Source of the DNA: Clostridiales bacterium UBA5448
GTDB taxonomy: Bacteria > Bacillota > Clostridia > Oscillospirales > SIG627
Assembly: GCA_002427425.1 (NCBI GenBank)
Contig: DIRA01000037.1
Coordinates: 36,509 to 100,508, forward strand
Length of the DNA stretch: 64,000 bases
Direction: 5' to 3'
A model generated the notes under the pieces. That model was given only the letters and a program-made list of their open reading frames with translations. It had not been told where the DNA came from and did no database searches. Shown here in pieces: positions 4,470 through 33,000 of the stretch; positions within the stretch are counted from its first letter, which is position 1; every line of letters starts with the position of its first letter. Made by a program: the position numbers and the translations under genes.

Positions 4470-4546
4470 ATTTCTACTCTCCTTTGGCTATATTGACAAT
4501 TTACCCGAAATATGTTAGGATTATACAAATTTACTCGGAGGTTGCC

Positions 4547-5080
4547 ATGAATCCATCCACCCAGGAAATTCTGGATTTTCTCGATCAACATTACATACAA
4601 CATATTCGATTTTCTCACCCCGTGGTTTTCACCTCGGAAGAAAAAAAACAAAACGATCTAAACAACGGCATAGTCGGTGCCACCCACTGCAAAAATCTGC
4701 TTCTCTGCAATCGCCAGGGTACCTTGTTTTATTTGCTCATACTCCCCTTTGAAAAAAACTTTCGCACCGCGGAAATCTCAAAACAACTGGGCGTGTCCAG
4801 ATTGAGTTTTTCAACCGAGGAAAAATTGGAAAAATTTCTGCATACCCATGCCGGTGCCGTCAGTCCCCTGGGTCTGATGTACGATCAAGATTTTCGTATC
4901 GGTCTTGCCATGGACCAAGAACTGAAAGACAAGGCCCTGCTTTGCTTTCACCCCAATGAGGAATCCATCACCTGCATCTTTAACAATGACGTGTTTTACA
5001 ATCAATTGCTTCCTCTTTTGCGGCACAGGCCCCACTTTATTAAAGTGGAAGAAATTCCCATGCATCATACCGAAGTATAA
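4547..5080 (+). CDS. Prolyl-tRNA-synthetase-associated (YbaK/ProX-like) aminoacyl-tRNA deacylase domain protein
   Basis: An internal ATG at 4547 has GGAG 7 nt upstream. The ORF-track start at 4439 overlaps the divergent gene. The motif pattern HCKNLLL...GAVSPLGL is typical of the ProX/YbaK family. Confidence 0.7.
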   Translation: MNPSTQEILDFLDQHYIQHIRFSHPVVFTSEEKKQNDLNNGIVGATHCKNLLLCNRQGTLFYLLILPFEKNFRTAEISKQLGVSRLSFSTEEKLEKFLHTHAGAVSPLGLMYDQDFRIGLAMDQELKDKALLCFHPNEESITCIFNNDVFYNQLLPLLRHRPHFIKVEEIPMHHTEV

Positions 5081-5101
5081 CACAATATTCGACAAAATTC
5101 A

Positions 5102-5137
5102 AGCCGGAAACAGACTGCTGTTTCCGGCTCTCTTTTT
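5102..5137. terminator. Bidirectional terminator between convergent genes
   Basis: A 12-bp perfect stem agccggaaacag-actg-ctgtttccggct is followed by ctcttttt. Confidence 0.75.
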
Positions 5138-7409
5138 ACATATTGTCCTTTTCGCGGATATCCACCCGGCGGATCTTTCCGCTGATGGTCTTAGGCAATT
5201 CATCTGTAAATTCCACGATGCGGGGATATTTATAAGGTGCGGTATGGGTTTTTACATATTCTTTGATTTCCTTGATCAAGTCATCGCTGCCCACGGTACC
5301 TTTTGTCAGCACGATGGTGGCTTTGACAACCTGACCGCGAACGGGATCGGGAACACCGGTAACAGCGCATTCCAGTACATAGGGAAGTTCCATCAGAACA
5401 CTTTCGATTTCAAAAGGCCCGATACGGTAACCGGAGGATTTGATCAAATCATCCACACGGCCCACAAACCAGAAATAGCCGTCTTCATCCCGCCAGGCGG
5501 TGTCGCCGGTATGATAATAGCCATCATGCCATGCCTTGTCGGTGGCTTCCTGGTTTCGATAGTAACCGGAGAACAAGCCGCAAGGTTTGTTGTCCGGGGT
5601 GGCACGAACGACAATTTCGCCCACCTCCCCCACTTTACAGGATACGCCCCCGCTGTTTAGCAGATCCATATGATACATGGGGCTTGGTTTTCCCATGGAA
5701 CCGGGCTTCATGTCCTCCCCTAAGAGGTTACAGATGGTCAGGGTGGTTTCGGTTTGACCGAATCCTTCCATCAGCTTGATACCGGTTGCAAGCAAAAATT
5801 GCTGGTATACTTCCGGGTTGAGTGCTTCGCCGGCAGTGGAAGCATATTCCAAACTGGAAAGATCATAGGAAGACAAATCTTCTTTGATAAAGAAACGATA
5901 CATGGTAGGTGGGGCGCAGAAAGTGGTGATTCCATATTTGCTGAAAAGAGGTAAAATGTCTTTTGCATCAAACTTATGAAAATCATAGGTGAAAATGGCT
6001 GCTTCGCATAGCCACTGACCATAGATCTTACCCCACAAGGCTTTCCCCCATCCCGTATCGGAAATGGTAAAGTGGATACCGTCGGGATTGACATTGTGCC
6101 AGGATTTCGCTGTAATCAAATGACCCAAAGAATAGGTGTAACTATGGGCAGCGATTTTGGGATACCCGGTGGTACCGGAGGTAAAGTACATCAACGAAAC
6201 TTCGTCGAACTTATTGTCTACCCGGCGGATGAAATCGCTATGGTTGGCATATTCCGTGTTGAAATGATACCATCCTTCTCTGGGAGAACCTACCATGATT
6301 TTGGTTTCAATGCCGTTGTATTCTTCCATGGCCAGTTCAACCTGATGGGATACATCCCCTTGGGAGGTACAAACCAAAGCGGATACGCCGGCTGCCTGGA
6401 AACGGTAAACCAAATCTTTTTTCACCAACTGGTCGGTGGCAGGGATAACAATGGCACCCAGCTTATGAAGTGCCAAGATGGAATACCAAAATTGGTAGTG
6501 TCGTTTCAAAATCAGCATGACACGATCGCCTTTTTTGATACCCAGTGAAGCAAAATAATTGGCTGTGCGGGAAGATTCTCTGGCCATATCGCCAAAGGAA
6601 AAGCGGCGCTCGGTCTTATTTTCATCCAAATGGAGCATGGCAAGTTTATCGGGACATTTTTTCGCCAATGCATCCACAACATCATAAGCAAAGTTATAAT
6701 TATCGGGATAATGGAAAGAAATATCGATCAGCTTTCCTTTTTCGTCTTCCACAAGATCGGCAAATCTGCGGAAGATACTGTCCGCATCGTTTCTGCGATG
6801 AGCGAAGTGATAATGACCACCGCGCGAGACATTGTCATGCCCGGTTTCATTGTCCATGACCACCGCAAGAAAGGTGCAATCTGCGTCCCAGGCAATCATA
6901 CCGTGAGGAATGGAGCTGTCATAGTACAACGTATCTCCTTCACTTAATACCTCTTCGCTGTCGCCGATTACGACTTTGAGCTTGCCTTTTAGGATATAGT
7001 CAAACTCTTCCCCCTTATGGGTAGAAACAGGAATGGGTTTGTTCATTTCGGCCGGATCAAACTTGGCTTGCACCAGGAAGGGTTCACTGAATTTTCCCTT
7101 AAAGTTGGTTGCCAGGAGTTGATAGGAAAAACCTTCTGTACGATTTAGCATGGCACCCTCTCCTTTACGGAGAACGGAGTACCGGGAAAGTTTCGGCTGT
7201 TCCCCGGTCAGAAGGTCGTTGATGTCGATATCGAAAATATCGGCACATTTGTGAAGCATGGCAAACGTAAAATCTGTTTCTCCGCTTTCACATTTTAAAT
7301 ACAATTCGGTTTCCATGCCCAGCATGGATGCCATTTCATCGCTGGTTTTACCTGAGATCCGTCGCAACTCGGCCACACGGCTTGCGATTAAGATGTTGTT
7401 GTTATCCAT
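5136..7409 (-). CDS. Fusion protein: XRE-family HTH + cupin domain + AMP-forming short/medium-chain acyl-CoA synthetase
   Basis: The start is the ATG at 7409 (MDNNNIL) with GAGGGAAA upstream. The longer track ORF to 7535 would run through the T-box terminator. The N-terminus is an HTH_3-like domain (SGKTSDEMASMLGMETELYLKCESGE). It is followed by a cupin (HKGEEFDYILKGKL...GDTLYYDSSIPHG). The remainder is an ACSM-like AMP-binding enzyme (NFAYDVVD, YFTSGTTGYPK, YHTGD, GRVDDLIKSSGYRIGPFEIE, PKTISGKIRR). Confidence 0.85.
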   Translation of the reverse strand: MDNNNILIASRVAELRRISGKTSDEMASMLGMETELYLKCESGETDFTFAMLHKCADIFDIDINDLLTGEQPKLSRYSVLRKGEGAMLNRTEGFSYQLLATNFKGKFSEPFLVQAKFDPAEMNKPIPVSTHKGEEFDYILKGKLKVVIGDSEEVLSEGDTLYYDSSIPHGMIAWDADCTFLAVVMDNETGHDNVSRGGHYHFAHRRNDADSIFRRFADLVEDEKGKLIDISFHYPDNYNFAYDVVDALAKKCPDKLAMLHLDENKTERRFSFGDMARESSRTANYFASLGIKKGDRVMLILKRHYQFWYSILALHKLGAIVIPATDQLVKKDLVYRFQAAGVSALVCTSQGDVSHQVELAMEEYNGIETKIMVGSPREGWYHFNTEYANHSDFIRRVDNKFDEVSLMYFTSGTTGYPKIAAHSYTYSLGHLITAKSWHNVNPDGIHFTISDTGWGKALWGKIYGQWLCEAAIFTYDFHKFDAKDILPLFSKYGITTFCAPPTMYRFFIKEDLSSYDLSSLEYASTAGEALNPEVYQQFLLATGIKLMEGFGQTETTLTICNLLGEDMKPGSMGKPSPMYHMDLLNSGGVSCKVGEVGEIVVRATPDNKPCGLFSGYYRNQEATDKAWHDGYYHTGDTAWRDEDGYFWFVGRVDDLIKSSGYRIGPFEIESVLMELPYVLECAVTGVPDPVRGQVVKATIVLTKGTVGSDDLIKEIKEYVKTHTAPYKYPRIVEFTDELPKTISGKIRRVDIREKDNM

Positions 7410-7437
7410 ACTATTTCCCTCTTCTTTCCTCTTATAT

Positions 7438-7690
7438 AAAAAAGTCCGCCCCTGTGAATCAGGGACGGACAAAATCCGTGGTACCACCCATATTGGCAGA
7501 TACAATCTGCCCGCTTTCAGGTCAAATAACCTCATTGCCTTAACGCGGCCCAGCTCGTTGCCGCCTACTTTTCAGCGGCACCGCTCAGAAATGATGTGTT
7601 CAAACGACTTCTCACCGACTTGCACCACCCGTCGGCTCTCTGTATAGGAGTACTTGTTCAAACCGTTTTCGTCACAGCGTTTGTGTTTTT
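7438..7690 (-). promoter_or_regulatory. T-box leader RNA (tRNA-sensing transcription attenuator)
   Basis: Read on the minus strand. A K-turn-like Stem I base (CGC-UGU-GA-C-GAAA ... UUUC-U-GA-GCG). An S-turn-like AAGUA. The AG bay AGAGAG. A distal hairpin CCGAC-GGGUGGUGCAA-GUCGG. Stem III GGCAGAU-UGU-AUCUGCC. The T-box sequence AAUAUGGGUGGUACCACGG. An antiterminator (GGG/CCC and ACGGA/UCCGU around a UGGUACC bulge) that competes with the terminator GUCCGUCCCUG-AUUCA-CAGGGGCGGAC-U6 (7438-7470). Confidence 0.85.
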
Positions 7691-7693
7691 TAC

Positions 7694-7722
7694 ATTATAT
7701 GATGTTCGTTTTATTTTGTCAA
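7694..7722 (-). promoter_or_regulatory. Consensus sigma-A type promoter for the T-box leader
   Basis: Minus strand TTGACA-17 nt-TATAAT, an exact consensus, about 12 nt after the stop of the upstream LtaS-family gene. Confidence 0.7.
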
Positions 7723-7734
7723 GTGGTTTAGAAA

Positions 7735-10041
7735 TTATTTTTTCATGGATGCTGCATGAGCAGCGGCAGCCTCCGGGAACAAAATGGCATAATAATCGTT
7801 ATTCAAAATCGCTGTAGAAGCCGTACATTTGTTCTTAACAACCTCAATAACCGCTTCCACATATCCCTGAGGAATGAGATATTCATCCACAAGATAAGTG
7901 ATCTGACGAGTAGAAGCGTTGTATTTCACATAGTCGGTAATAAAGGACTGATCGCTGAGAATGGCAATCCCGGCGGCAGAGGAGAACACATCGTTGCCGG
8001 AAAGAAGCCTGGAATCGTATTCAAATCCGAACAGATTCAAAATTGTGGGAAGGACATCAATGGCACAGCAGGTCTTGGTAACGGTTCTTTCTTCCTCGGT
8101 CATGGTATGAATCATTTGGGAGTTATAGAGAATCAATGTGCTGTTGTATTTATCAAAGCCGGTATCAATGGTTTCGCCCACCAGGTTGTTATATTGTTTA
8201 GATGACAATCCATAGGGGTAATGATCGGCACCCAGCACGAATACTGTTTTATCTAAAACACCGGCTTCTTCCAACCGTTTACACAGTTCTTCTAACATTT
8301 TGTCCAGCTCAATATGGCAAGCCAGATATGCCTGACATACTTCGTCGTACTTCTCGCCATTTTTATTGTACTGGTGTTTTTGTGTCGCACTCTTATTTTT
8401 CACGGCCATATAGTTTAAAGGAACCAGATTCCCGTCGGAGTCTTCCTTCAGCTCAAAGGTATACCGATAGTGGCCGCTGACAGTCATATAATACGCATGG
8501 AATTGCTCCATGTTGATAAAATCACCGTAGGACTGCTTGGCCATTTCATAGTCGGATTCCGGCCAACCGGTCACAGATAAGCCCTGGTTTCTGGCCTTAA
8601 AGATATACCCCATGTTGGGATGGGTAATGTTTCTGGAATAGTACGTTTTGGTGTGGTTGTGATAAGCATAAGCCTGAACGCCAATGGAATCAAACGCATT
8701 GCCCAGACAGTAGGGCATATAGTTTTCCTTGGAAGCCACAAAACTGCCATTGGATTTTTCTCTCGCCAAGTCAGGAATCAAACCGGTACAAAACGCATAT
8801 TCCCCATTGGTGGTATTAGAAGGGAACATGGTGTAATAGTTGTTAAAAATGAACCCTTCCGTGGCCATTTTATACAAGGTAGGAGTCAATTCGGGTTCAA
8901 TAATAGCACCGGATGAAAAGCTTTCCGCGCAAATATAGATCAGATTATACCCTTTGAACATACCGGTATACTCATTCTTAGTAGTACCGGAAATGGTTTT
9001 ATAATACTCATGAAGCTTTTTGATGACATGATTGGTTTCCCCGGCGATCATGGCATCAAAGTCGATCTCCAGCACGTTATAGGTAACTTCGGGATTGGGC
9101 GTACCGGGATTATCTCCGTTGGAATTGTCAGGATCCTTGTTTCCGTCAGGACCCGGCTTCACATCGATCGAAGGTACATCCACAGGATCCAGCGTCACTT
9201 CCTTGTCTCCCGTCTCGTATTTGGGGCGCAATCCCATATCCTGCAACGTAGCGGTTACCATCCCCAGTTTGGATATCTGCGTGCTGAGCGCACCGGAATT
9301 GAAATAGAGATCATACGGTGTATGATAACCGGTACCGGGGATAAACAAGGAAAGGACGGTTATGCCGTAACTGAGAATCATGACGATGCTCAATACCAAC
9401 TGCGCCTTGGGAGGTCTGCGTTGAAAAAAATAAAAATTCTTTTTAATATAAATGCTGATATTACCAATGAATTTTTCAACGTGATTTCCCGTGGTCAACC
9501 GCTCCACTCTGGAAGGTTTACCAGCGATCCAATATTGAACAACGATGAAAAGATATACCAGAAGCGGGACACATAAAATCACAATGTTTCCCAAATTGAT
9601 GTAGATTAAATGAATGATTTCATCTGCAAACGTGTTCATGGCATCCTCTGCCACGCCTTTGAGAGAAAATGTAAAGAAATCGTTGAAAATATCGTAGTAA
9701 ATCATTTGGAAATTATAGTAGAAGCTGAACATTAAGAGAAAAAGCCCCATTATAATTCCATTTGCAATCTTGTGAAACGGCGTCGAAAACAAACTCAGTA
9801 AACAACCAACGGGAATTGCAAACAATACAGGATATAAAAAGTAAATGTCAATACTGCCAAATGTCATCGCTTGTATAATAATTTCGTAATAAACGATAGA
9901 AACAATAAAAAACATTGCCGGCTTGTTCTTTTTGATCCAATTCCAAATGCCCTTAAACAGCTTCTGGCATACCGTCAGACAATCCTGACCAACTGCCTTG
10001 AGCCCTTCCAACCATTTCATGGAATCTTTACCTCTTTTCAT
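7735..10041 (-). CDS. LTA synthase / sulfatase-family phosphoglycerol-type transferase, polytopic membrane protein
   Basis: The N-terminal ~280 aa contain multiple TM helices, followed by a Pro/Asp/Asn-rich linker. The C-terminal alkaline-phosphatase-superfamily domain has LIYICAESFSS and GADHYPYG motifs as in LtaS-like enzymes. Confidence 0.75.
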   Translation of the reverse strand: MKRGKDSMKWLEGLKAVGQDCLTVCQKLFKGIWNWIKKNKPAMFFIVSIVYYEIIIQAMTFGSIDIYFLYPVLFAIPVGCLLSLFSTPFHKIANGIIMGLFLLMFSFYYNFQMIYYDIFNDFFTFSLKGVAEDAMNTFADEIIHLIYINLGNIVILCVPLLVYLFIVVQYWIAGKPSRVERLTTGNHVEKFIGNISIYIKKNFYFFQRRPPKAQLVLSIVMILSYGITVLSLFIPGTGYHTPYDLYFNSGALSTQISKLGMVTATLQDMGLRPKYETGDKEVTLDPVDVPSIDVKPGPDGNKDPDNSNGDNPGTPNPEVTYNVLEIDFDAMIAGETNHVIKKLHEYYKTISGTTKNEYTGMFKGYNLIYICAESFSSGAIIEPELTPTLYKMATEGFIFNNYYTMFPSNTTNGEYAFCTGLIPDLAREKSNGSFVASKENYMPYCLGNAFDSIGVQAYAYHNHTKTYYSRNITHPNMGYIFKARNQGLSVTGWPESDYEMAKQSYGDFINMEQFHAYYMTVSGHYRYTFELKEDSDGNLVPLNYMAVKNKSATQKHQYNKNGEKYDEVCQAYLACHIELDKMLEELCKRLEEAGVLDKTVFVLGADHYPYGLSSKQYNNLVGETIDTGFDKYNSTLILYNSQMIHTMTEEERTVTKTCCAIDVLPTILNLFGFEYDSRLLSGNDVFSSAAGIAILSDQSFITDYVKYNASTRQITYLVDEYLIPQGYVEAVIEVVKNKCTASTAILNNDYYAILFPEAAAAHAASMKK

Positions 10042-18571: not shown

Positions 18572-21500
18572 ATGGCAAGAAAGAAACTCACCATGGACGG
18601 CAACAACGCGGCGGCGCATGTATCCTATGCGTTTACCGAAGTTGCCGGCATCTACCCCATTACCCCTTCCAGCCCCATGGCAGACTACGTGGATCAGTGG
18701 TCGGCACAGGGTTTAAAAAACATTTTCGGTACCACGGTGAATGTGGTGGAAATGCAGTCTGAAGCAGGGGCAGCAGGTACGGTTCACGGTTCGTTGGCAG
18801 CCGGTGCGCTGACCACCACCTATACCGCATCCCAGGGCCTGCTTTTGATGATCCCCAATATGTATAAAATTGCCGGGGAACTTCTTCCCTGCGTTTTCCA
18901 TGTAACCGCCCGTACCCTCGCTTCTCACGCGCTGAACATTTTCGGCGACCACTCCGACGTGTATGCCTGCCGTCAGACCGGTTTTGCCATGTTGGCGGAA
19001 ACCAACCCCCAGGAAGTCATGGATTTGTCTGCCGTTGCCCACTTGGCTACCATCAAGAGCAGAGTACCGTTTATCAACTTCTTTGACGGGTTCAGAACCT
19101 CCCACGAGATCCAGAAGATCGATGTATGGGATTATGAAGATTTGGCTTCCCTGTGCGACATGGAAGCTGTAGACGCTTTCCGCAAGCGCGCCCTCAACCC
19201 CGAAAGACCCGCGATGCGCGGTTCTCATGAAAACGGCGATATTTTCTTCCAGCACAGAGAAGCTTGCAACCGATACTATGAAGCGGTTCCCGGCATCGTG
19301 GAAGATTACATGAACAAAGTCAACAAAAAGTTGGGTACCCATTATAAACCCTTCAATTACTACGGTGCTCCCGATGCCGAACGCGTCATCGTCGCCATGG
19401 GTTCGATCTGCGATGTAGCGGAAGAAGTCATCGATTATTTGATGGCCAGAGGCGAAAAAGTGGGCTTGGTAAAAGTCCGTTTGTACCGTCCTTTTTCGGC
19501 GGAAAGATTGCTGGAAGCCATTCCCGCCTCCTGTAAGAAGCTGGCTGTTTTGGATCGTACCAAAGAACCCGGTGCCCTGGGCGAACCTTTGTATCTGGAC
19601 GTGGTGACCTCTTTGGCAGAAGCCGGCAGAACCATGACCGTCATCGGCGGCCGTTACGGCTTGGGCTCCAAAGACACGCCTCCCTCCTCCGTCTTCGCCG
19701 TATACGAGGAATTGAATCAGGACAAACCGAAAAGACAGTTCACCCTGGGTATCCACGACGATGTAACCAACCTATCTTTGGAAGAAAAGATTTCCCCCAA
19801 TACTGCGGCACCCGGCACCATCGAATGCAAATTCTGGGGTCTGGGCGGCGACGGTACCGTGGGCGCGAACAAAAACTCCATCAAGATCATCGGTGACCAT
19901 ACCGACAAATACGTACAGGCTTATTTCCAGTACGATTCCAAAAAAACCGGTGGTATCACTATTTCCCACCTGCGTTTCGGCGACAACCTCATCAAATCTC
20001 CTTATTACATCAATAAGGCTGACTTTGTTGCCTGCCACAACCCCTCCTATGTGACCAAGGGATACAAAATGGTCAACGATGTCAAGCCCGGCGGTGCGTT
20101 TTTGATCAACTGCCAATGGACACCCGAAGAATTGGCTGAACAGCTTAATGCCCAAGCAAAGCGCTATATCGCCAAAAACGACATCCGGCTTTATACCGTC
20201 AACGCCATTGACATTGCCGACAAAATCGGCATGGGAAAGCGTACCAATACCATTCTGCAGGCTTCTTTCTTTGCGCTGTCAAAAGTCATGCCCATCGAAG
20301 AAGCGATTGAATACATGAAGAAAGCCGCCACCAAGTCCTATGCTCGAAAGGGGCAGGACATTGTAGACATGAACCACAAGGCCATTGAAGCCGGCGTGAG
20401 TGCCTTTGTAAAGATCGACGTTCCCGCCGATTGGGCAAACGCCGTGGACGAAGTCATTGCCGACGAAGAAAAAGGCGCCTCCAAACTGGTGAAGATGATC
20501 AACAACCTCATGAAGCCCGTGGCTTTGATGAACGGCGACTCTCTCCCCGTTTCCGCCTTCATCGATCATGCGGACGGTACCTTTGAACTGGGTGCTGCCG
20601 CCTATGAAAAACGCGGCGTTGCCGTCACCGTGCCCGAATGGGACCCCGAGTCCTGCGCCAAGTGCAACCGCTGTTCTTACGTATGTCCTCACGCCACCAT
20701 TCGTCCTTATGCACTGAACGAAGAAGAATTGGCAGCTGCTCCCGCCCAGCTGAAAAAGGCTCCCAAACCCGTTGTGAAAACCAACTATACCTACAGCCTG
20801 GCGATTTCTCCTGCCGACTGTATGGGATGTACCGTTTGTGTGGGTGTTTGCCCCACCGATTCATTGAAGATGGTTCCGAGGGAATCTCAGTTGGATCAGC
20901 AGGAAGTCTTTGACTACTGCGTAGAAAACGTCAGCGAAAAACCCGAAATCACTGAAAAGCTCACTCTTTTGACCAGCCAGTTCAAGAAACCGTTGCTAGA
21001 ATTCTCCGGCTCCTGTGCAGGTTGTGCCGAAACCTCCTACGCCAGACTGGTCACCCAGTTGTTCGGTGACAGAATGTATATCTCCAATGCCACCGGCTGT
21101 TCCTCCATCTGGGGCGGCCCTGCGGCCACTTCTCCGTATACCGTCAACAAAGACGGCCGTGGTCCTGCCTGGGCAAACTCCCTATTTGAAGACAACGCCG
21201 AACACGGTATGGGTATGTTCTTAGGTCAGAAAGCCCTCCGGGACAGACAGATCGAGAAAGTGAAGAAGATCGTGGCTTCCGACGCGGCCAACGCCGATTT
21301 GAAAGCCGCTGCCGAAGGCTATCTCGCCACTGTGGACAACGGCGATACCAACGTGAAAGCCACCGATAAACTGGTTGCCGAACTGGTAAAGGTTGCCGAC
21401 AAGTGCGACAACTGCCATAGCATTTTGGAGAACAAAGAATTCCTGTCCAAGAAGTCCGTCTGGATCTTTGGCGGCGACGGCTGGGCATATGACATCGGCT

Positions 21501-22120
21501 TCGGCGGATTGGATCACGTTTTAGCATCCGGCGCAGACGTCAACGTCTTCGTGTTCGATACCGAAGTATACTCCAACACCGGCGGACAAGCCTCCAAGGC
21601 ATCCCAGATAGGTCAGGTTGCCCAGTTTGCAGCGGCGGGTAAATCCATCGCCAAGAAATCATTGGCGGAAATCGCCATGTCTTACGGGTATGTGTACGTG
21701 GCACAAGTTGCCATGGGTGCCGACCTGAACCAGACATTGAAGGCAATCCAGGAAGCGGAAGCCTATCACGGACCATCTCTCATCATCGGTTACGCTCCTT
21801 GCGAAATGCACTCCATCAAGGGTGGCATGGCAAACTGCCAGAGCGAAATGAAGAAGGCTGTGGAAAGCGGCTATTGGAACATGTTCCGCTTTAATCCCGT
21901 TTTGAAGTCTGCAGGAAAGAATCCCTTGACCTTGGACAGCAAGCCCGCGACCGGCGACTACAAAGAGTTCATTTTGAACGAAGCCCGATACTCATCTTTG
22001 ACCAGATCCTTCCCCGAAAGAGCGGAAGAACTGTTCAACAAAGCGTCCGAAAACGCCAAAGCGCAGAGAGAACATCTGGAAAGACTGGTCAAACTCTACG
22101 CCCCCTCCGACGCCGAATAA
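18572..22120 (+). CDS. nifJ: Pyruvate:ferredoxin (flavodoxin) oxidoreductase
   Basis: The 1182-aa single-chain PFOR has a characteristic N-terminus (MDGNNAAAHVSYAFTEVAGIYPITPSS), two 4Fe-4S ferredoxin motifs (CAKCNRCSYVCPH, CMGCTVCVGVCP) and a TPP-binging C-terminal domain (GGDGWAYDIGFGGLDH). Confidence 0.95.
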   Translation: MARKKLTMDGNNAAAHVSYAFTEVAGIYPITPSSPMADYVDQWSAQGLKNIFGTTVNVVEMQSEAGAAGTVHGSLAAGALTTTYTASQGLLLMIPNMYKIAGELLPCVFHVTARTLASHALNIFGDHSDVYACRQTGFAMLAETNPQEVMDLSAVAHLATIKSRVPFINFFDGFRTSHEIQKIDVWDYEDLASLCDMEAVDAFRKRALNPERPAMRGSHENGDIFFQHREACNRYYEAVPGIVEDYMNKVNKKLGTHYKPFNYYGAPDAERVIVAMGSICDVAEEVIDYLMARGEKVGLVKVRLYRPFSAERLLEAIPASCKKLAVLDRTKEPGALGEPLYLDVVTSLAEAGRTMTVIGGRYGLGSKDTPPSSVFAVYEELNQDKPKRQFTLGIHDDVTNLSLEEKISPNTAAPGTIECKFWGLGGDGTVGANKNSIKIIGDHTDKYVQAYFQYDSKKTGGITISHLRFGDNLIKSPYYINKADFVACHNPSYVTKGYKMVNDVKPGGAFLINCQWTPEELAEQLNAQAKRYIAKNDIRLYTVNAIDIADKIGMGKRTNTILQASFFALSKVMPIEEAIEYMKKAATKSYARKGQDIVDMNHKAIEAGVSAFVKIDVPADWANAVDEVIADEEKGASKLVKMINNLMKPVALMNGDSLPVSAFIDHADGTFELGAAAYEKRGVAVTVPEWDPESCAKCNRCSYVCPHATIRPYALNEEELAAAPAQLKKAPKPVVKTNYTYSLAISPADCMGCTVCVGVCPTDSLKMVPRESQLDQQEVFDYCVENVSEKPEITEKLTLLTSQFKKPLLEFSGSCAGCAETSYARLVTQLFGDRMYISNATGCSSIWGGPAATSPYTVNKDGRGPAWANSLFEDNAEHGMGMFLGQKALRDRQIEKVKKIVASDAANADLKAAAEGYLATVDNGDTNVKATDKLVAELVKVADKCDNCHSILENKEFLSKKSVWIFGGDGWAYDIGFGGLDHVLASGADVNVFVFDTEVYSNTGGQASKASQIGQVAQFAAAGKSIAKKSLAEIAMSYGYVYVAQVAMGADLNQTLKAIQEAEAYHGPSLIIGYAPCEMHSIKGGMANCQSEMKKAVESGYWNMFRFNPVLKSAGKNPLTLDSKPATGDYKEFILNEARYSSLTRSFPERAEELFNKASENAKAQREHLERLVKLYAPSDAE

Positions 22121-27933: not shown

Positions 27934-29190
27934 ATGAAGAAACTGCTTTCCCTGCTGTTGGTCATCTGTTTGGTCGCATCCATGACTATGCTGGTCAGCT
28001 GCGGCGACAAAGACAACGACAACGGCAAAGACAACACGGGCGACGGAGACAACAATAAAGGCAAAAACAACGAAAAAGACGACGAAAAACCTACCTCGTT
28101 CCCGGCCATTTCCAAAGAAAACCTGAAAATCGGCGTGATCCATATCGGTGATCCCGCAGACGGTTCCGGCTATTCTTATACCCATGATCTGGGCATCCAG
28201 GGCATGCAGAGAAATCTAGGTTTGTCCGACAATCAAATCGTTCGCAAGCTCAACGTAGACGATGGTGACACCACAGCCATCCGTACCGCCATCGAAGAAT
28301 GCATCACGGACGGATGCAACCTGATTTTCGGTACTTCCTACGGCTATATGCAACCCATGAATGATTTGGCCAAACAATTCCCCGAAGTTCTTTTCTCCCA
28401 TGGCACCGGTTACATGTCCAATGATTACAACTTCAACAACTACTTTGGCCGCATTTACCAGGCCAGATACCTGGCTGGTATCGCTGCCGGTCTGAAAGCA
28501 ACCCAGGGTGGCAAAGTGGGTTATGTGTCTGCATACGGCACCGAATTGGCCGAAACCTGCTCCGGTATCAACGCGTTCGCTCTGGGCGTTCAGTCTGTAA
28601 ACCCCACCGCGGTTGTGTATGTAAAATCCCTCAGTTCCTGGTATGATCCTGGAATGGAAACCGCTTGTGCCAATTCTCTCATCGATATGGGATGTGAAGT
28701 CATTGCCCAACACTGCGATACCGCCAACCCCCAGATTGCTGCCCAGACCAGCGGCGTGTTCGGCTGCGGCTACAACAGCAATATGACCCCGCAGGCCCCC
28801 AATGCCCATCTGACCGCTCCCATCTGGAATTGGGATGTGTATTACACCACCGCAGCCCAGGCTGCCATCGACGGCAAGTTCTCCGAAATGGGTAACTACT
28901 ATGGCGGTTTGAAGGAAGGCTTTGTGGATGTATCCCCCCTGTCCGACAACTGCGTGGAAGGTACACAGGACAAAATCGACGCTGTGAAAGCCCTCATCAT
29001 TACCGGTGAATGGGATGTGTTCTCCGGCGTAAAACTCTCCTTTGATGAAAACGGCGCTCTGGTAAAAACCGACGCCGATCTGAAAGACAATCAAGGCAAA
29101 GTGATCGTGGCAACCGGCGGTGCCTCCGTGGCTGATTCCGTCCTCCAGGGCTCCATGAACTACTTTGTCGCAGGCGTTGACCTGAAATAA
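27934..29190 (+). CDS. BMP-family (PnrA-like) ABC substrate-binding lipoprotein, probable nucleoside binding
   Basis: Lipobox MLVSCGD. A low-complexity Asp/Asn/Lys linker. A BMP-family core (IGVIHIGDP.DGSGYSY.H, GKVGYVSAYG). Confidence 0.8.
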   Translation: MKKLLSLLLVICLVASMTMLVSCGDKDNDNGKDNTGDGDNNKGKNNEKDDEKPTSFPAISKENLKIGVIHIGDPADGSGYSYTHDLGIQGMQRNLGLSDNQIVRKLNVDDGDTTAIRTAIEECITDGCNLIFGTSYGYMQPMNDLAKQFPEVLFSHGTGYMSNDYNFNNYFGRIYQARYLAGIAAGLKATQGGKVGYVSAYGTELAETCSGINAFALGVQSVNPTAVVYVKSLSSWYDPGMETACANSLIDMGCEVIAQHCDTANPQIAAQTSGVFGCGYNSNMTPQAPNAHLTAPIWNWDVYYTTAAQAAIDGKFSEMGNYYGGLKEGFVDVSPLSDNCVEGTQDKIDAVKALIITGEWDVFSGVKLSFDENGALVKTDADLKDNQGKVIVATGGASVADSVLQGSMNYFVAGVDLK

Positions 29191-29221
29191 TTGTAACAAT
29201 CCTAAATACATCTTTGTGCGA

Positions 29222-29248
29222 AAGGGCACTGCATACCGCGGTGCCCTT
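29222..29248 (+). promoter_or_regulatory. Intercistronic hairpin between the binding-protein and ATPase genes
   Basis: aagggcac-11 nt-gtgccctt with no clear T tract. This position is typical for differential expression of the SBP versus the membrane complex. Confidence 0.35.
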
Positions 29249-29281
29249 CGTAAAGTTTCATGAACCTAAGAGAGTTTGTAT

Positions 29282-32023
29282 ATGAAAGAAAAAACAACTG
29301 CCATCGAATTGAGAGGCATCACCAAAGTATTCGGAACAGTCCTTGCCAATGACAGCATTGATTTGATCGCTTATAAAGGCGAGATTCTGGCCCTTTTGGG
29401 CGAAAACGGTTCCGGCAAGACCACCCTGATGAACATGCTGTCGGGCATTTATAAACCCGACGGCGGTGAGATTTTTGTTAACGGGCAATCGGTGATCATA
29501 AACTCTCCCGAAGACTCTAAACGTTTGAAAATCGGTATGGTTTACCAGCATTATAAGCTGGTGGAATCCTTTACCGCAGCCGACAATATCTGGATTTCGG
29601 CAGCCCATGAAAACTATCCCCTGTTAACTGGGGAACGGTATGAAAAAATCCGCACTATTTGTGACAGTTTTGGTTTTGAAATCGACCCTAAAAAAATCGT
29701 AGGCGATATGGCTGTCAGTGAAAAACAGACCGTTGAAATTTTAAAAGTATTGTATAACGGTGCGGATATCTTAATTTTAGACGAACCCACCGCCGTGCTG
29801 ACCCTGCAGGAAACCAAGAAGCTTTTTGCCATTCTGCGGAAAATGCGGGATGCCGGCTGTGCAATTATCATCATCACCCATAAATTGAATGAGGTGATGG
29901 ATATTTCCGACCGTGTCACCATTTTGCGGAAAGGCAAAAGCGTGGCGACGGTGGAAACTTCTGCCACCACCGCCAAGGAATTGACGGATCTCATGATGGG
30001 GCACGCCATCAACTTGTCCATCGAACATCCCGAAGTCACCCCCGGAGAGATCCTGCTGGAACTGGACGGGGTCACCGTCAAAGGGGAAGAAGGCACCTTG
30101 GCGCTGGACAACGTGTCCTTCGAATTGAAAAGCGGAGAAATCTTAGGTGTTGCGGGGGTTTCCGGCTGCGGACAAAAAGAACTCTGCGATGCCATTGCCG
30201 GCTTACAGGCACTGGAAAACGGAAAAATTCTTTTTAAAGGGGAATCCATCGAAGGAAAAAGCCCTCGGGATATCATTCATCGGGGTATTTCCATGAGTTT
30301 TATCCCCGAGGACCGGTTAGGTATGGGCCTAGCGGCGTCTTTGGATATCACCAACAACATGATGCTAAAAAATTACCGGGACGGGCATTCTCCCCTGGTC
30401 AACCGCCGCAAAGCCATCAAGGAAGCCCGGCATGTAGTGCGTGAATTGGGCATCATCACCCCCTCCATTTCCACCCCCGTCCGCCGCCTTTCCGGCGGCA
30501 ACGTGCAGAAAGTCCTGCTGGGTCGTGAAATGCTCTCCGCCCCTCAGGTCATGATTACGGCTTATCCCGTCCGTGGACTGGATATCAACTCTTCCTATAC
30601 TATTTATAACATTCTCAATCGAGAAAAAGAAAAAGGCACCGGCGTGTTGTACGTGGGGGAAGATTTGGACGTGATGCTGGAGCTATGCGACCGGATTCTG
30701 GTGCTGTGCCACGGTAAGCTCACGGGCATTGTCAATGCACGGGAATCTTCCAAGGAAGAGCTGGGTCTGTTGATGACCGATGCCAACAACGCCGTAAACT
30801 TAAAAGAAGATTCCGATGGGAGCGTGGCGGTTTCCTACACCCCCCCTGCCATTAATATCAAAGCTTCAAAAAAAACCCGCCGTCCTTTGCTTCATTTGGT
30901 GCGCCGCCCCGATCTGACCTGGTATCAAACGGTTTTGACCTATACCGTGGGTATACTGGTTGCCGTTCTGATGGGGTCTTTGGTCATCAGCTTGAACCAT
31001 GTGAATCCTCTGGAATATTTCAAAGCATTGATCGAAAAGTGCTTTATGATGCCCCAGGGTATCACCTTATCCAATAATATCAACCTACAAAACACCCTTC
31101 GCATGTACATACCTCTGGTGATCACATCTTTAGGCATCGCTTGTGCTTTTAAGATGAAGTTCTGGAACATCGGTGCCAACGGACAGTTCACCGTGGGCTG
31201 TATGCTGGGTGCCTGGGTGGGTCTGATATGGGGCGATTCTCTCCCCCACTGGGCGGTCATGCTCCTGATGGCGCTGGTGGCCATCGTGGGTACGGGTATC
31301 CTGGGCTTGATTCCCGCACTGTGCAAAGAATATTTCGGCACCAGCGAAACTCTGTTGACCTTGATGTTCAACTACATCGCCATGTATGTGCTGTTTTATC
31401 TGAAAAAAACCTATACCTTCGGTAAACTCAATTTTGCCGGCGTACCCAATAACCGCGACTATGAAACCCTCCCTGAAAATGCCTGGCTGGGCACCACCGA
31501 TTTGGGGAGTGTTACCGTAGACAATTCCCTGTTTGTGGCACTGGTATTGATTATCATTATTTTTATATATTTTAAATTTACTAAACAGGGATATGAAATC
31601 ACCGTGGTGGGTGACAGCCGCAACACCGCCCGCTATGCCGGCATGAACGTGAAACGCATCGTTTTCCGCACCATGTTTTTATCCGCCGCCATTGTGGGTT
31701 TGGGGGGCATGCTTCAGGTTTCCGGCTTTGCGGCAGGTCACCGGCTGGGCGGCAACATCACCGCCGACGTGGGCTGGACAGGCATCATCGTGGCATGGCT
31801 GGCAAAATTGAATCCCGTGGCTATCGCCATTTTGTCTTTGCTGATTGTGGTCCTCCAGAAAGGAGCCACCAGCGTGGAATCCAATTTCCCCACCATGCCT
31901 TCCTCGGTTTCCAACATTTTCATCGCTCTTTTCCTATTTACCCTGTTGGCAACAGACTTCTTTATGAAATATAAGCTTGTTGTTCTCCCTCCATTTCAGA
32001 CGAAAGGAGGCAAAGAAGCATGA
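29282..32023 (+). CDS. Fused ABC transporter protein: tandem ATP-binding domains + permease domain
   Basis: A single uninterrupted ORF. NBD1 has GENGSGKTT, LSVSEKQ-type signature and ILILDEPTA. NBD2 has GVSGCGQKE, LSGGNVQK and VLYVGEDLD. After a ~45-aa linker comes a ~370-aa polytopic permease of the BMP-associated type. Confidence 0.8.
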   Translation: MKEKTTAIELRGITKVFGTVLANDSIDLIAYKGEILALLGENGSGKTTLMNMLSGIYKPDGGEIFVNGQSVIINSPEDSKRLKIGMVYQHYKLVESFTAADNIWISAAHENYPLLTGERYEKIRTICDSFGFEIDPKKIVGDMAVSEKQTVEILKVLYNGADILILDEPTAVLTLQETKKLFAILRKMRDAGCAIIIITHKLNEVMDISDRVTILRKGKSVATVETSATTAKELTDLMMGHAINLSIEHPEVTPGEILLELDGVTVKGEEGTLALDNVSFELKSGEILGVAGVSGCGQKELCDAIAGLQALENGKILFKGESIEGKSPRDIIHRGISMSFIPEDRLGMGLAASLDITNNMMLKNYRDGHSPLVNRRKAIKEARHVVRELGIITPSISTPVRRLSGGNVQKVLLGREMLSAPQVMITAYPVRGLDINSSYTIYNILNREKEKGTGVLYVGEDLDVMLELCDRILVLCHGKLTGIVNARESSKEELGLLMTDANNAVNLKEDSDGSVAVSYTPPAINIKASKKTRRPLLHLVRRPDLTWYQTVLTYTVGILVAVLMGSLVISLNHVNPLEYFKALIEKCFMMPQGITLSNNINLQNTLRMYIPLVITSLGIACAFKMKFWNIGANGQFTVGCMLGAWVGLIWGDSLPHWAVMLLMALVAIVGTGILGLIPALCKEYFGTSETLLTLMFNYIAMYVLFYLKKTYTFGKLNFAGVPNNRDYETLPENAWLGTTDLGSVTVDNSLFVALVLIIIIFIYFKFTKQGYEITVVGDSRNTARYAGMNVKRIVFRTMFLSAAIVGLGGMLQVSGFAAGHRLGGNITADVGWTGIIVAWLAKLNPVAIAILSLLIVVLQKGATSVESNFPTMPSSVSNIFIALFLFTLLATDFFMKYKLVVLPPFQTKGGKEA

Positions 32024-33000
32024 GTGCCTTGATTGCTTATTTATTTGCCGCCATCGCCCGCAGCACCCCCCTTCTGATGGGTACCACCGGGGAAATCATG
32101 ACGGAAAAAGGAGGCTCCTTAAACCTCGGTGTAGAAGGCATGATGGCAGTAGGCGCCATCACCGGATATTTGGCAGCGGTGACTTTCGACAACCTGCTTC
32201 TGGGGATCGTAGCATCCTTCATCGGTGCCGCTTTATGCGGATTGTTGTATGCCTTTTTGACCGTGACCCTCCAGTCCAACCAAAACGTCACCGGGATTGC
32301 CCTATCCACCTTCGGTGTTGCCTTGTATAAATTCATCGGCAACCGTATGACCCAATGGGACGGCGGTTTTCCCGTGGCAAGCAAATTTCCCCATTTGACC
32401 GGAGTCCTGCGTATCCAAGGCATTCCCGTGCTACGAGATATCCCCTACGTAGGTCCTTTGCTTTTTTCCCATAACCTTCTTGTGTATTTCGCTGTTTGCG
32501 TTTCTGTTTTGTGCTGGTTGTATATTTTCAAAACCAAAAACGGTTTAAAACTCCGTGCCGTGGGAGAAAATCCTTCGGCGGCGGACGCAGCCGGAGTCAA
32601 CGTAGGCCGATACCGTTATATCCACGACATCATCGGCGGCGGCATTTGCGGCATCGGCGGTTTGTATCTGGGTCTTGTGACCAACGGCAGTTGGAACGAA
32701 AGTTGGATCAACGGCACCGGCTGGATTGCTGTGGCTCTGGTTATATTCGCCAACTGGAACCCCCTCATCGCCATTTTCGGTTCTTTCTTCTTTGGTATGC
32801 TTCAGGAATTGACCGTGAGAAAAGGAAATTTGGTAGAAGAATTCCCCGGACTATCCTTTTTGAATGACATACCGGATGATTTTTACAACCTGCTCCCCTT
32901 TGCCTTCACCGCTTTGGTACTGATTCTGGCAGGTGTGTTGAAAAGAAAAAATGCTGAACCTTCCGGGCTGGGGCTCAATTACTTTCGGGAAGAACGCTGA
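32020..33000 (+). CDS. ABC transporter permease (second membrane subunit)
   Basis: ATGA overlap with the fused gene. 326 aa, multi-TM, with G-rich helices typical of the nucleoside/sugar CUT2-like permeases. Confidence 0.8.
   Translation: MSALIAYLFAAIARSTPLLMGTTGEIMTEKGGSLNLGVEGMMAVGAITGYLAAVTFDNLLLGIVASFIGAALCGLLYAFLTVTLQSNQNVTGIALSTFGVALYKFIGNRMTQWDGGFPVASKFPHLTGVLRIQGIPVLRDIPYVGPLLFSHNLLVYFAVCVSVLCWLYIFKTKNGLKLRAVGENPSAADAAGVNVGRYRYIHDIIGGGICGIGGLYLGLVTNGSWNESWINGTGWIAVALVIFANWNPLIAIFGSFFFGMLQELTVRKGNLVEEFPGLSFLNDIPDDFYNLLPFAFTALVLILAGVLKRKNAEPSGLGLNYFREER

Follow-up and report, generated by a model that had tools for sequence, protein, structure and literature searches.

A T-box leader, very probably specific for isoleucine, ahead of a gene for a predicted 2-methylbutyrate--CoA ligase in Clostridiales bacterium UBA5448

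Introduction

The usual targets of T-box riboswitches are genes for aminoacyl-tRNA synthetases, canonical amino-acid biosynthesis and transporters. The present analysis concerns a stretch of 64,000 nucleotides from Clostridiales bacterium UBA5448 (contig DIRA01000037.1, positions 36,509 to 100,508), called the window below, in which a T-box leader with the same full architecture as the ileS and ilv-leu leaders of Bacillus and Clostridia stands before a gene of a different kind, that of an acyl-CoA synthetase (ACS). An earlier note on this DNA, made from the letters alone, had described a transcriptional T-box ahead of an adenylate-forming acyl-CoA synthetase, a description that we uphold, and had called the target atypical. 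The latter holds for the open T-box surveys that we consulted: CoA ligases are not mentioned as T-box targets in the open regulon surveys or in the TBDB paper. In the literature searched, no link was found between T-boxes and acyl-CoA synthetases or VOR-type 2-oxoacid:ferredoxin oxidoreductases (VOR; OFOR for the wider class); a mention in Vitreschak et al. (2008) is possible. What is new here is the target class of the T-box and its implications, the RNA itself being ordinary.

Branched volatile fatty acids are required by cellulolytic ruminococci and by many Clostridia of the gut. In labelling studies of the 1960s, Allison and Bryant reportedly showed that rumen bacteria carboxylate branched volatile acids into leucine, isoleucine, valine and phenylalanine. 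For ruminococci, a carboxylation route from branched volatile fatty acids to amino acids is documented in references given in one article (PMC7356843). The literature searched yielded no assignment of activating enzymes or regulation for the carboxylation of branched volatile acids, and no report that joins the classical pathway to T-box control or to a fused ligase.

Two characterized enzymes are the nearest points of comparison for the ligase. MacsMa of Methanosarcina acetivorans (PDB 3ETC) prefers 2-methylbutyrate and depends critically on Trp259 of its alternate pocket; propionate can be adenylated, but the CoA step is efficient only with 2-methylbutyrate (PMC10455477). MbcS activates 2-methylbutyrate and isobutyrate and is poor on isovalerate; in Staphylococcus aureus it supplies the primer for anteiso branched-chain fatty acids (PMC10026030).

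The leader RNA

All coordinates are window positions, and features lie on the minus strand unless noted otherwise. A sigma-70-type promoter at 7722..7694 matches the consensus at 12 of 12 positions (-35 TTGACA, 7722..7717; -10 TATAAT, 7699..7694; spacer 17 nt), as the earlier note had read it, and is the sole perfect site found by consensus scan within 4500..8500. For its claim of a complete T-box leader, the note had proposed a scan with the Rfam model RF00230 as the check. The model matches 7684..7458 at 107.2 bits against a gathering score of 93 (E 1e-22) and does so over its full length, positions 1-219 of 219, taking in Stem I, Stem II, the IIA/B region, Stem III and the antiterminator. 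When the whole 64-kb window was compared with Rfam, this leader was the only RNA match at gathering level. The promoter, Stem I, Stem III, T-box, antiterminator and terminator elements that had been picked out by eye are each present on this strand where they had been placed.

Stem I (7678..7583) is defined by the RF00230 alignment, the fold and the family consensus. It begins with the strands of a kink-turn (K-turn), GCUGUGAC at 7678..7671 and UGAGC at 7587..7583, above which lies a basal helix of GAAA with UUUC (7670..7667 with 7591..7588). The middle helix is formed by two copies of GUUUGAAC (7663..7656 with 7605..7598), and the upper part carries the AG bay AGAGA (7641..7637) and a distal hairpin with the strands GCCGAC and GUCGGU around the loop GGGUGGUGCAA (7636..7614). 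Stem II (UGCCGCU ... GGCGGCA, 7580..7559) has GAA and AGUA S-turn elements in its loop according to the covariance alignment, while Stem III (GGCAGAU-UGU-AUCUGCC, 7511..7495) is given by both that alignment and the centroid fold. The T-box sequence AAUAUGGGUGGUACCACGG follows at 7494..7476. It contributes to an antiterminator at 7489..7462, recognized from the sequence and from the RF00230 alignment, in which GGG/CCC and ACGGA/UCCGU pair around the 7-nt bulge UGGUACC (7486..7480).

The intrinsic terminator (GUCCGUCCCUG-AUUCA-CAGGGGCGGAC, 7470..7444, with U6 at 7443..7438), detected by consensus scan and by folding, has 11 bp, of which 8 are G-C pairs. Its fold reaches -21.7 kcal/mol (z = -6.7), and none of 200 shuffles was equally stable. 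The antiterminator region alone folds at -7.8 kcal/mol (z = -0.2), on par with shuffles, as expected of a helix that the tRNA must stabilise. Because UCCGUCCC is at once the 3' strand of the antiterminator and the 5' strand of the terminator, the two structures are mutually exclusive, as had been proposed, and in the 58-nt expression platform the terminator is the dominant fold. A strong terminator set against a weak antiterminator is the default-off arrangement of transcriptional T-boxes. The start codon of the gene (ATG, 7409..7407) lies 28 nt past the U-tract, equal to the earlier estimate, and is preceded by GAGGG. The RNA is a class-I transcriptional T-box riboswitch of standard type.

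Upstream of the promoter lies a gene for a 768-aa membrane protein with a Sulfatase domain (7735..10041), whose stop codon is 13 nt before the -35. No terminator was found between this gene and the -35; a transcript that ran on past its end would pass into the T-box leader as well.

The specifier codon

Ile (AUC) and Val (GUC) had been offered earlier as candidate specifiers. Both the covariance alignment and the family alignment decide for Ile: the specifier is AUC at 7595..7593, followed by the conserved purine A at 7592. The covariance alignment reads GAAC-ac-AUC-A-UUUC-UGAGC, and AUC-A abuts the basal helix on its 5' side with high posterior probability. In an alignment of 36 leaders of the family, AUC or GUA/GUC occupies the same column, directly 5' of the basal helix, and the Stem I consensus from these leaders has compensatory changes at 17 of 18 pairs.

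Folding of the full leader agrees. The two copies of GUUUGAAC can indeed self-pair, as the earlier note had observed, and in the minimum-energy fold they do so as the 8-bp middle helix of Stem I, which removes the ambiguity that the repeat had seemed to bring to the folding. With this helix formed, the 3' side of the specifier loop is AC-AUC-A, of which AUC-A are the last four bases. The pairing of the two copies also leaves GUC (7608..7606) outside the specifier loop, in an internal loop that faces the AG bay. The bulge UGGU predicts a tRNA with A73, which we take to fit tRNA-Ile. The AUC specifier ends in C, in keeping with the third-position preference described in TBDB. We consider it very probable that the element is an isoleucine-specific T-box attenuator.

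The other codons considered, GUC and the His (CAC) and Asn (AAC) codons that had been noted in the loop region, were rejected by position, only AUC-A abutting the basal helix.

The regulated enzyme

The gene under the leader (7409..5136) encodes a protein of 757 aa, predicted from Pfam, NCBIfam and PDB matches to be a 2-methylbutyrate--CoA ligase. Pfam assigns it four domains: HTH_19 (aa 10-71), Cupin_2 (aa 127-183), AMP-binding (aa 249-617) and AMP-binding_C (aa 667-745). The best solved structure is that of MacsMa (687 bits, E 3e-205, residues 210-756), and the critical Trp259 of MacsMa aligns with W437, which is invariant among 31 homologues. MacsMa thus resembles the window protein in its catalytic part, with the alternate-pocket Trp kept, but it is archaeal, without a T-box and without the N-terminal extension described below. 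MbcS (NF047394) is the top NCBIfam match, at 461 bits. It differs from the window protein in that it feeds fatty-acid synthesis and lacks the N-terminal module, and the score lies under the equivalog cut-off; its selectivity, in contrast, mirrors the leaders of the family, since activity on 2-methylbutyrate and isobutyrate with little on isovalerate fits a family that has only Ile and Val leaders. The gene product is most likely a short branched-chain acyl-CoA synthetase of the MacsMa/MbcS kind. Its predicted preference for 2-methylbutyrate follows from the biochemistry of MacsMa and MbcS together with the Ile specifier.

Residues 1-205 (7409..6795) form a helix-turn-helix (HTH)-cupin module, a fusion that was absent from the earlier note and is recognized here with Pfam, AlphaFold and Foldseek. 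The HTH_19 match scores 30.0 bits, just below the Pfam cut-off of 30.2. The AlphaFold model of the module has a predicted local distance difference test (pLDDT) value of 82.7 and consists of a five-helix HTH and a cupin barrel. Top Foldseek matches are the HppE epoxidase and the HTH_3 regulator 1Y9Q (E ~1e-11), at a low template modelling (TM) score of ~0.34 because the domain orientation differs. By predicted structure, HppE and 1Y9Q share the HTH and cupin folds with the module, which unlike them is fused to a CoA ligase. H131, E135 and H169 are invariant in homologues, with the spacing of a putative 2-His-1-Glu metal site, by comparison with the HppE ligands.

If the HTH binds DNA, its operator could lie near the promoter. 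A/T-rich palindromes upstream of the -35 occur in 23% of Ile-type promoters against 3.6% of shuffles in a mononucleotide shuffle, which is a weak control. The excess is suggestive in Ile-type promoters and is not seen in Val-type ones, and the faint version in the window is unconvincing. Inverted repeats of this kind, such as TTTTCAGAAAATTCTGAAAA, stand in the 50 nt upstream of the -35 in several related loci (e.g. L050, L005, L015 and L018), and could be a candidate operator of the fused HTH or plain UP-like A/T tracts.

The gene is monocistronic in the window. The unit is closed by a bidirectional terminator hairpin at 5101..5130 (both strands; 13 bp on the minus strand, 12 bp on the plus strand). 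The convergent gene at 4544..5080 (plus strand), which encodes a YbaK/ProX-like aminoacyl-tRNA editing domain, ends at the same hairpin. As this neighbour is not recurrent beside homologues, the adjacency is probably coincidental.

Conservation of the leader and the fusion protein

A protein search with the window ligase gave at least 8000 candidates. The best 120 of these share the same four-domain architecture at ~60% identity and come mostly from metagenome-assembled genomes (MAGs) of Clostridia/Oscillospiraceae. We compared 80 related genomic loci, from gut and rumen MAGs. The strict motif NGGNUGGNACCRCG detected a T-box in only 2 of the 80, a false negative because the family reads GAGUGGUACC (GAGUGG); with a relaxed motif, almost all homologues proved to have a T-box ~100-150 nt upstream, and in many cases another T-box lies ~2.6 kb away before a tandem paralogue. 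Most family leaders thus differ from class-I T-boxes, which read GGGUGGUACC, whereas the window leader retains GGG. The Rfam gathering threshold likewise gave only 6 T-box matches in 10 loci with one or two leaders each; it misses leaders of the family, and the lack of a match at that level is not evidence of absence.

There are 92 fusion open reading frames (ORFs) in 75 loci, 86 of them with at least 330 nt of upstream sequence. A T-box is present upstream of 77 of these 86 HTH-cupin-ACS genes (90%), and strong promoters equivalent to that of the window precede the leaders in nearly all related loci. The specifiers that could be parsed are ATC (46), GTA (17) and GTC (3). The parse was unbiased as to codon, taking any codon followed by one base, the 4-nt complement of the K-turn-proximal helix and NGAGY, and for the fusion genes it returned AUC or GUA/GUC. 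Leaders that failed the strict parser read AUC or GUA/GUC by eye where they are complete and unmasked, and Rfam alignments on 14 loci agree independently.

The T-box is missing in two groups. In a Ruminococcus sub-clade (loci L027, L040, L045, L046 and L067) no T-box was found upstream of the fusion gene; the leader there is short, has a conserved UAUGUAAGCAC start and gives no Rfam match. The copies of the fusion gene in Lentisphaerae/Victivallaceae (L062 and L065) also lack a T-box, as is expected outside the Firmicutes.

The split between Ile and Val specifiers tracks the protein phylogeny. Among 84 aligned proteins, specifier class agreed between a protein and its closest labelled neighbour in 70 of 72 comparisons. 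The window protein has a mean identity of 58.3% to the Ile-type set and 55.4% to the Val-type set, and at the 20 positions that discriminate the classes most strongly it agrees with the Ile type at 10 and with the Val type at 2. Fourteen of these 20 positions are inside the HTH-cupin module. The strongest discriminator in the catalytic domain is position 455, in the motif SDTGWGK. Here all Ile-type proteins (100%) have Gly and 95% of the Val-type proteins have Ala; the window protein has Gly. Sterically, it makes sense that the smaller acid goes with the larger residue. Judged by its motif, which resembles that of acetyl-CoA synthetases, position 455 may lie within the acyl pocket. By the GW(I/V)T motif, G455 would then presumably correspond to the acetate-pocket Ile312 of AcsMt. 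In AcsMt, Ile312 is a pocket residue (PMC3477478).

Pathway genes in related loci

Clustering of neighbouring ORFs in the related loci gives a recurrent order: an ACS with an Ile leader, an ACS with a Val leader, a P-loop protein, a 70-aa 2x[4Fe-4S] protein, OFOR alpha, beta and gamma subunits, and a class IV aminotransferase. The Pfam domains of the OFOR and aminotransferase are POR_N/PFOR_II, TPP_enzyme_C, POR and Aminotran_4. The alpha subunit passes the NCBIfam model VorB (562 bits against a cut-off of 399), and the aminotransferase passes the IlvE equivalogs (506 against 307, and 418 against 250).

In locus L016 (8296..14188 of that locus), the operon genes that follow the Val leader are closely packed, with gaps of 0-13 nt and no strong terminator among them. 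Operons in which a Val leader is followed by the ligase, the P-loop NTPase, the 2x[4Fe-4S] subunit and VorB-type alpha, beta and gamma subunits occur in L016 and in L010, L025, L036, L054, L057, L058, L060, L072, L077 and L079, and include IlvE in several loci. Where enough downstream sequence is available, OFOR/VOR genes follow the Val-type gene on the same strand in 12 of 15 cases. The relatives' ligase, VOR and IlvE are a complete set for the conversion of an acid to its acyl-CoA, a 2-oxoacid and an amino acid, and match the carboxylation route documented for ruminococci (references in PMC7356843). Compared with the classical reductive-carboxylation route, the relatives have the ligase and VorB-type subunits (delta, alpha, beta, gamma) behind one Val leader, with IlvE in some loci, whereas only the ligase is present in the window.

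The sole 2-oxoacid oxidoreductase in the window is a single-chain pyruvate:ferredoxin oxidoreductase (PFOR) of 1182 aa at 18572..22120 (plus strand; POR_N, PFOR_II, POR, EKR, Fer4 and TPP_enzyme_C), which has no T-box.

Two further kinds of T-box leader occur in the related loci. Leu T-boxes (CUC/CUG) stand before an HMGL-like/LeuA_dimer gene (L010, 558..4802; also L039, L059, L042, L064 and L069), which is followed by a gene for an 839-aa fusion of a xylose-isomerase-like triosephosphate isomerase (TIM) barrel to an AMP-binding ligase; the fusion protein may be the isovalerate counterpart. A T-box also precedes a PaaK-like phenylacetate-CoA ligase gene (L023, 11572..13226; L032, 12539..14195). 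Its specifier is UUC-C (Phe) if the basal helix has 5 bp and UCC-U (Ser) in the register of the model; with UGGU in the bulge, Phe is the likelier of the two and would agree with the known route from phenylacetate to phenylalanine. The Leu and PaaK-like leaders, though less secure, lend support to a broader pattern in which T-boxes gate the activation of acids.

Proposed mechanism and alternatives

We propose that transcription starts at the consensus promoter and that by default the terminator at 7470..7438 forms and stops the transcript short of the gene. Under isoleucine shortage, the anticodon GAU of uncharged tRNA-Ile would pair with the AUC codon of Stem I, and the free 3' end of the tRNA with UGGU of the T-box bulge. 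This pairing would stabilise the antiterminator and allow read-through into the gene. The ligase would convert 2-methylbutyrate to 2-methylbutyryl-CoA, which a VOR would reductively carboxylate to 2-keto-3-methylvalerate, and a branched-chain aminotransferase would convert the latter to isoleucine. These steps are those of the classical route from branched volatile fatty acids to branched-chain amino acids in anaerobes of the rumen and gut. With the ligase in a branched-chain amino-acid route, the T-box target becomes an amino-acid supply gene of a non-canonical route. We judge this full explanation, including the activation of 2-methylbutyrate for isoleucine synthesis, to be probable.

Several observations weigh against it. 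Identity of the window protein to the Ile-type set is only ~58%, and the leader falls in a divergent sub-group with GGGUGG in place of GAGUGG. At 461 bits, under the equivalog cut-off of 850, the protein is not an MbcS orthologue by the NCBI criterion. The HTH-cupin module could alter the control of the gene. Neither the 64-kb window, which holds no tRNA genes, nor 34 related loci yielded a tRNA-Ile gene against which to compare anticodon and base 73, and a tblastn search of the window with VOR subunits, IlvE and a LeuA-like protein found nothing but the PFOR. We infer the substrate of the enzyme, the direction of flux, the dependence of read-through on tRNA and the presence of VOR and IlvE elsewhere in the genome.

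The alternatives differ in whether they concern the use of the product, the substrate or the RNA. With the same RNA mechanism, the acyl-CoA could prime anteiso branched-chain fatty acids, replacing 2-methylbutyryl-CoA derived from isoleucine. This is the role of MbcS, the best-named bacterial relative (PMC10026030), and the window gene is solitary, neither VOR nor IlvE having been found in the 64 kb; about half of the relatives' Ile-type genes likewise have no VOR within 6.5 kb. The Val-type paralogues, however, are co-operonic with VorB-type genes, and with IlvE in some loci, which points to amino-acid synthesis, and the sensing of tRNA charge typifies amino-acid supply genes. We regard fatty-acid priming as the purpose of the gene as unlikely; the same acyl-CoA serves both uses, which are not mutually exclusive. 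The substrate could instead be propionate, with propionyl-CoA carboxylated to 2-oxobutyrate and isoleucine made from it by the ordinary ilv pathway. An Ile specifier fits this scheme equally well, MacsMa adenylates propionate, and the PFOR 11 kb away might carboxylate short acyl-CoAs; yet the CoA step of MacsMa is efficient only with 2-methylbutyrate (PMC10455477), the sister clade has Val leaders, for which the parallel substrate is isobutyrate, and the smaller residue in Ile-type proteins (Gly455, against Ala in the Val-type) is what a bigger Ile-type substrate would lead one to expect. A propionate-activating enzyme thus seems improbable.

As to the RNA, a Val-specific leader reading GUC at 7608..7606 would suit the UGGU bulge, which fits tRNA-Val (A73) as well as tRNA-Ile, and Val leaders do exist in this gene family. 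Against this, GUC is 5' of the 3' strand of GUUUGAAC and so in the internal loop that faces the AG bay, the covariance model and family alignment both put AUC-A at the specifier, and the protein sides with the Ile type at 10 of the 20 discriminating positions against 2 for Val; we give Val specificity very little credence. That the leader is a decayed or constitutively terminating relic, with the gene under its own HTH domain, is hardly credible at all: the protein does carry an HTH and a minority of homologues have no T-box, but all conserved T-box elements are intact in a match above the curated Rfam threshold, the promoter is perfect, and 90% of homologues, from many species, retain the arrangement. 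Isoleucine-dependent antitermination of a 2-methylbutyrate ligase for isoleucine synthesis remains the reading that we prefer.

Implications

On this preferred reading, the leaders offer a direct hypothesis for a large family (at least 8000 candidates) that has no annotation beyond 'AMP-binding protein' or 'acetyl-CoA synthetase': the substrate is predicted from the specifier, and the pathway from the genes that share the operon (VorB-type oxidoreductase, IlvE). The known T-box regulon would be extended to acid salvage. The finding bears on branched-chain amino-acid auxotrophy in genome-scale models of gut and rumen bacteria, and may bear on the supplementation of branched volatile fatty acids in ruminant nutrition.

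A wider proposal, which we put forward tentatively and regard as rather doubtful, is that the specifier is a natural label of the substrate for acid-activating ligases in gut and rumen Firmicutes, and that the fused HTH-cupin is a second sensor. Ile leaders would then mark 2-methylbutyrate ligases, Val leaders isobutyrate ligases and Leu leaders the TIM-barrel-fused ligases, with Phe leaders probably marking PaaK-like phenylacetate ligases, and the genes for making amino acids by reductive carboxylation, a set long missing, would be defined by these leaders and ligases together. The ligase itself could be a BirA-like enzyme-repressor or an end-product-inhibited enzyme. Were this proposal true, the pathway would be gated by both tRNA charging and a small-molecule signal.

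Other features of the window

A further locus at 27934..33000 (plus strand) encodes a PnrA/Bmp-type substrate-binding protein, then a fused ABC ATPase-permease (BPD_transp_2) and a further ORF. The products probably make up an ABC importer for nucleosides or sugars, with no relation to the T-box gene.

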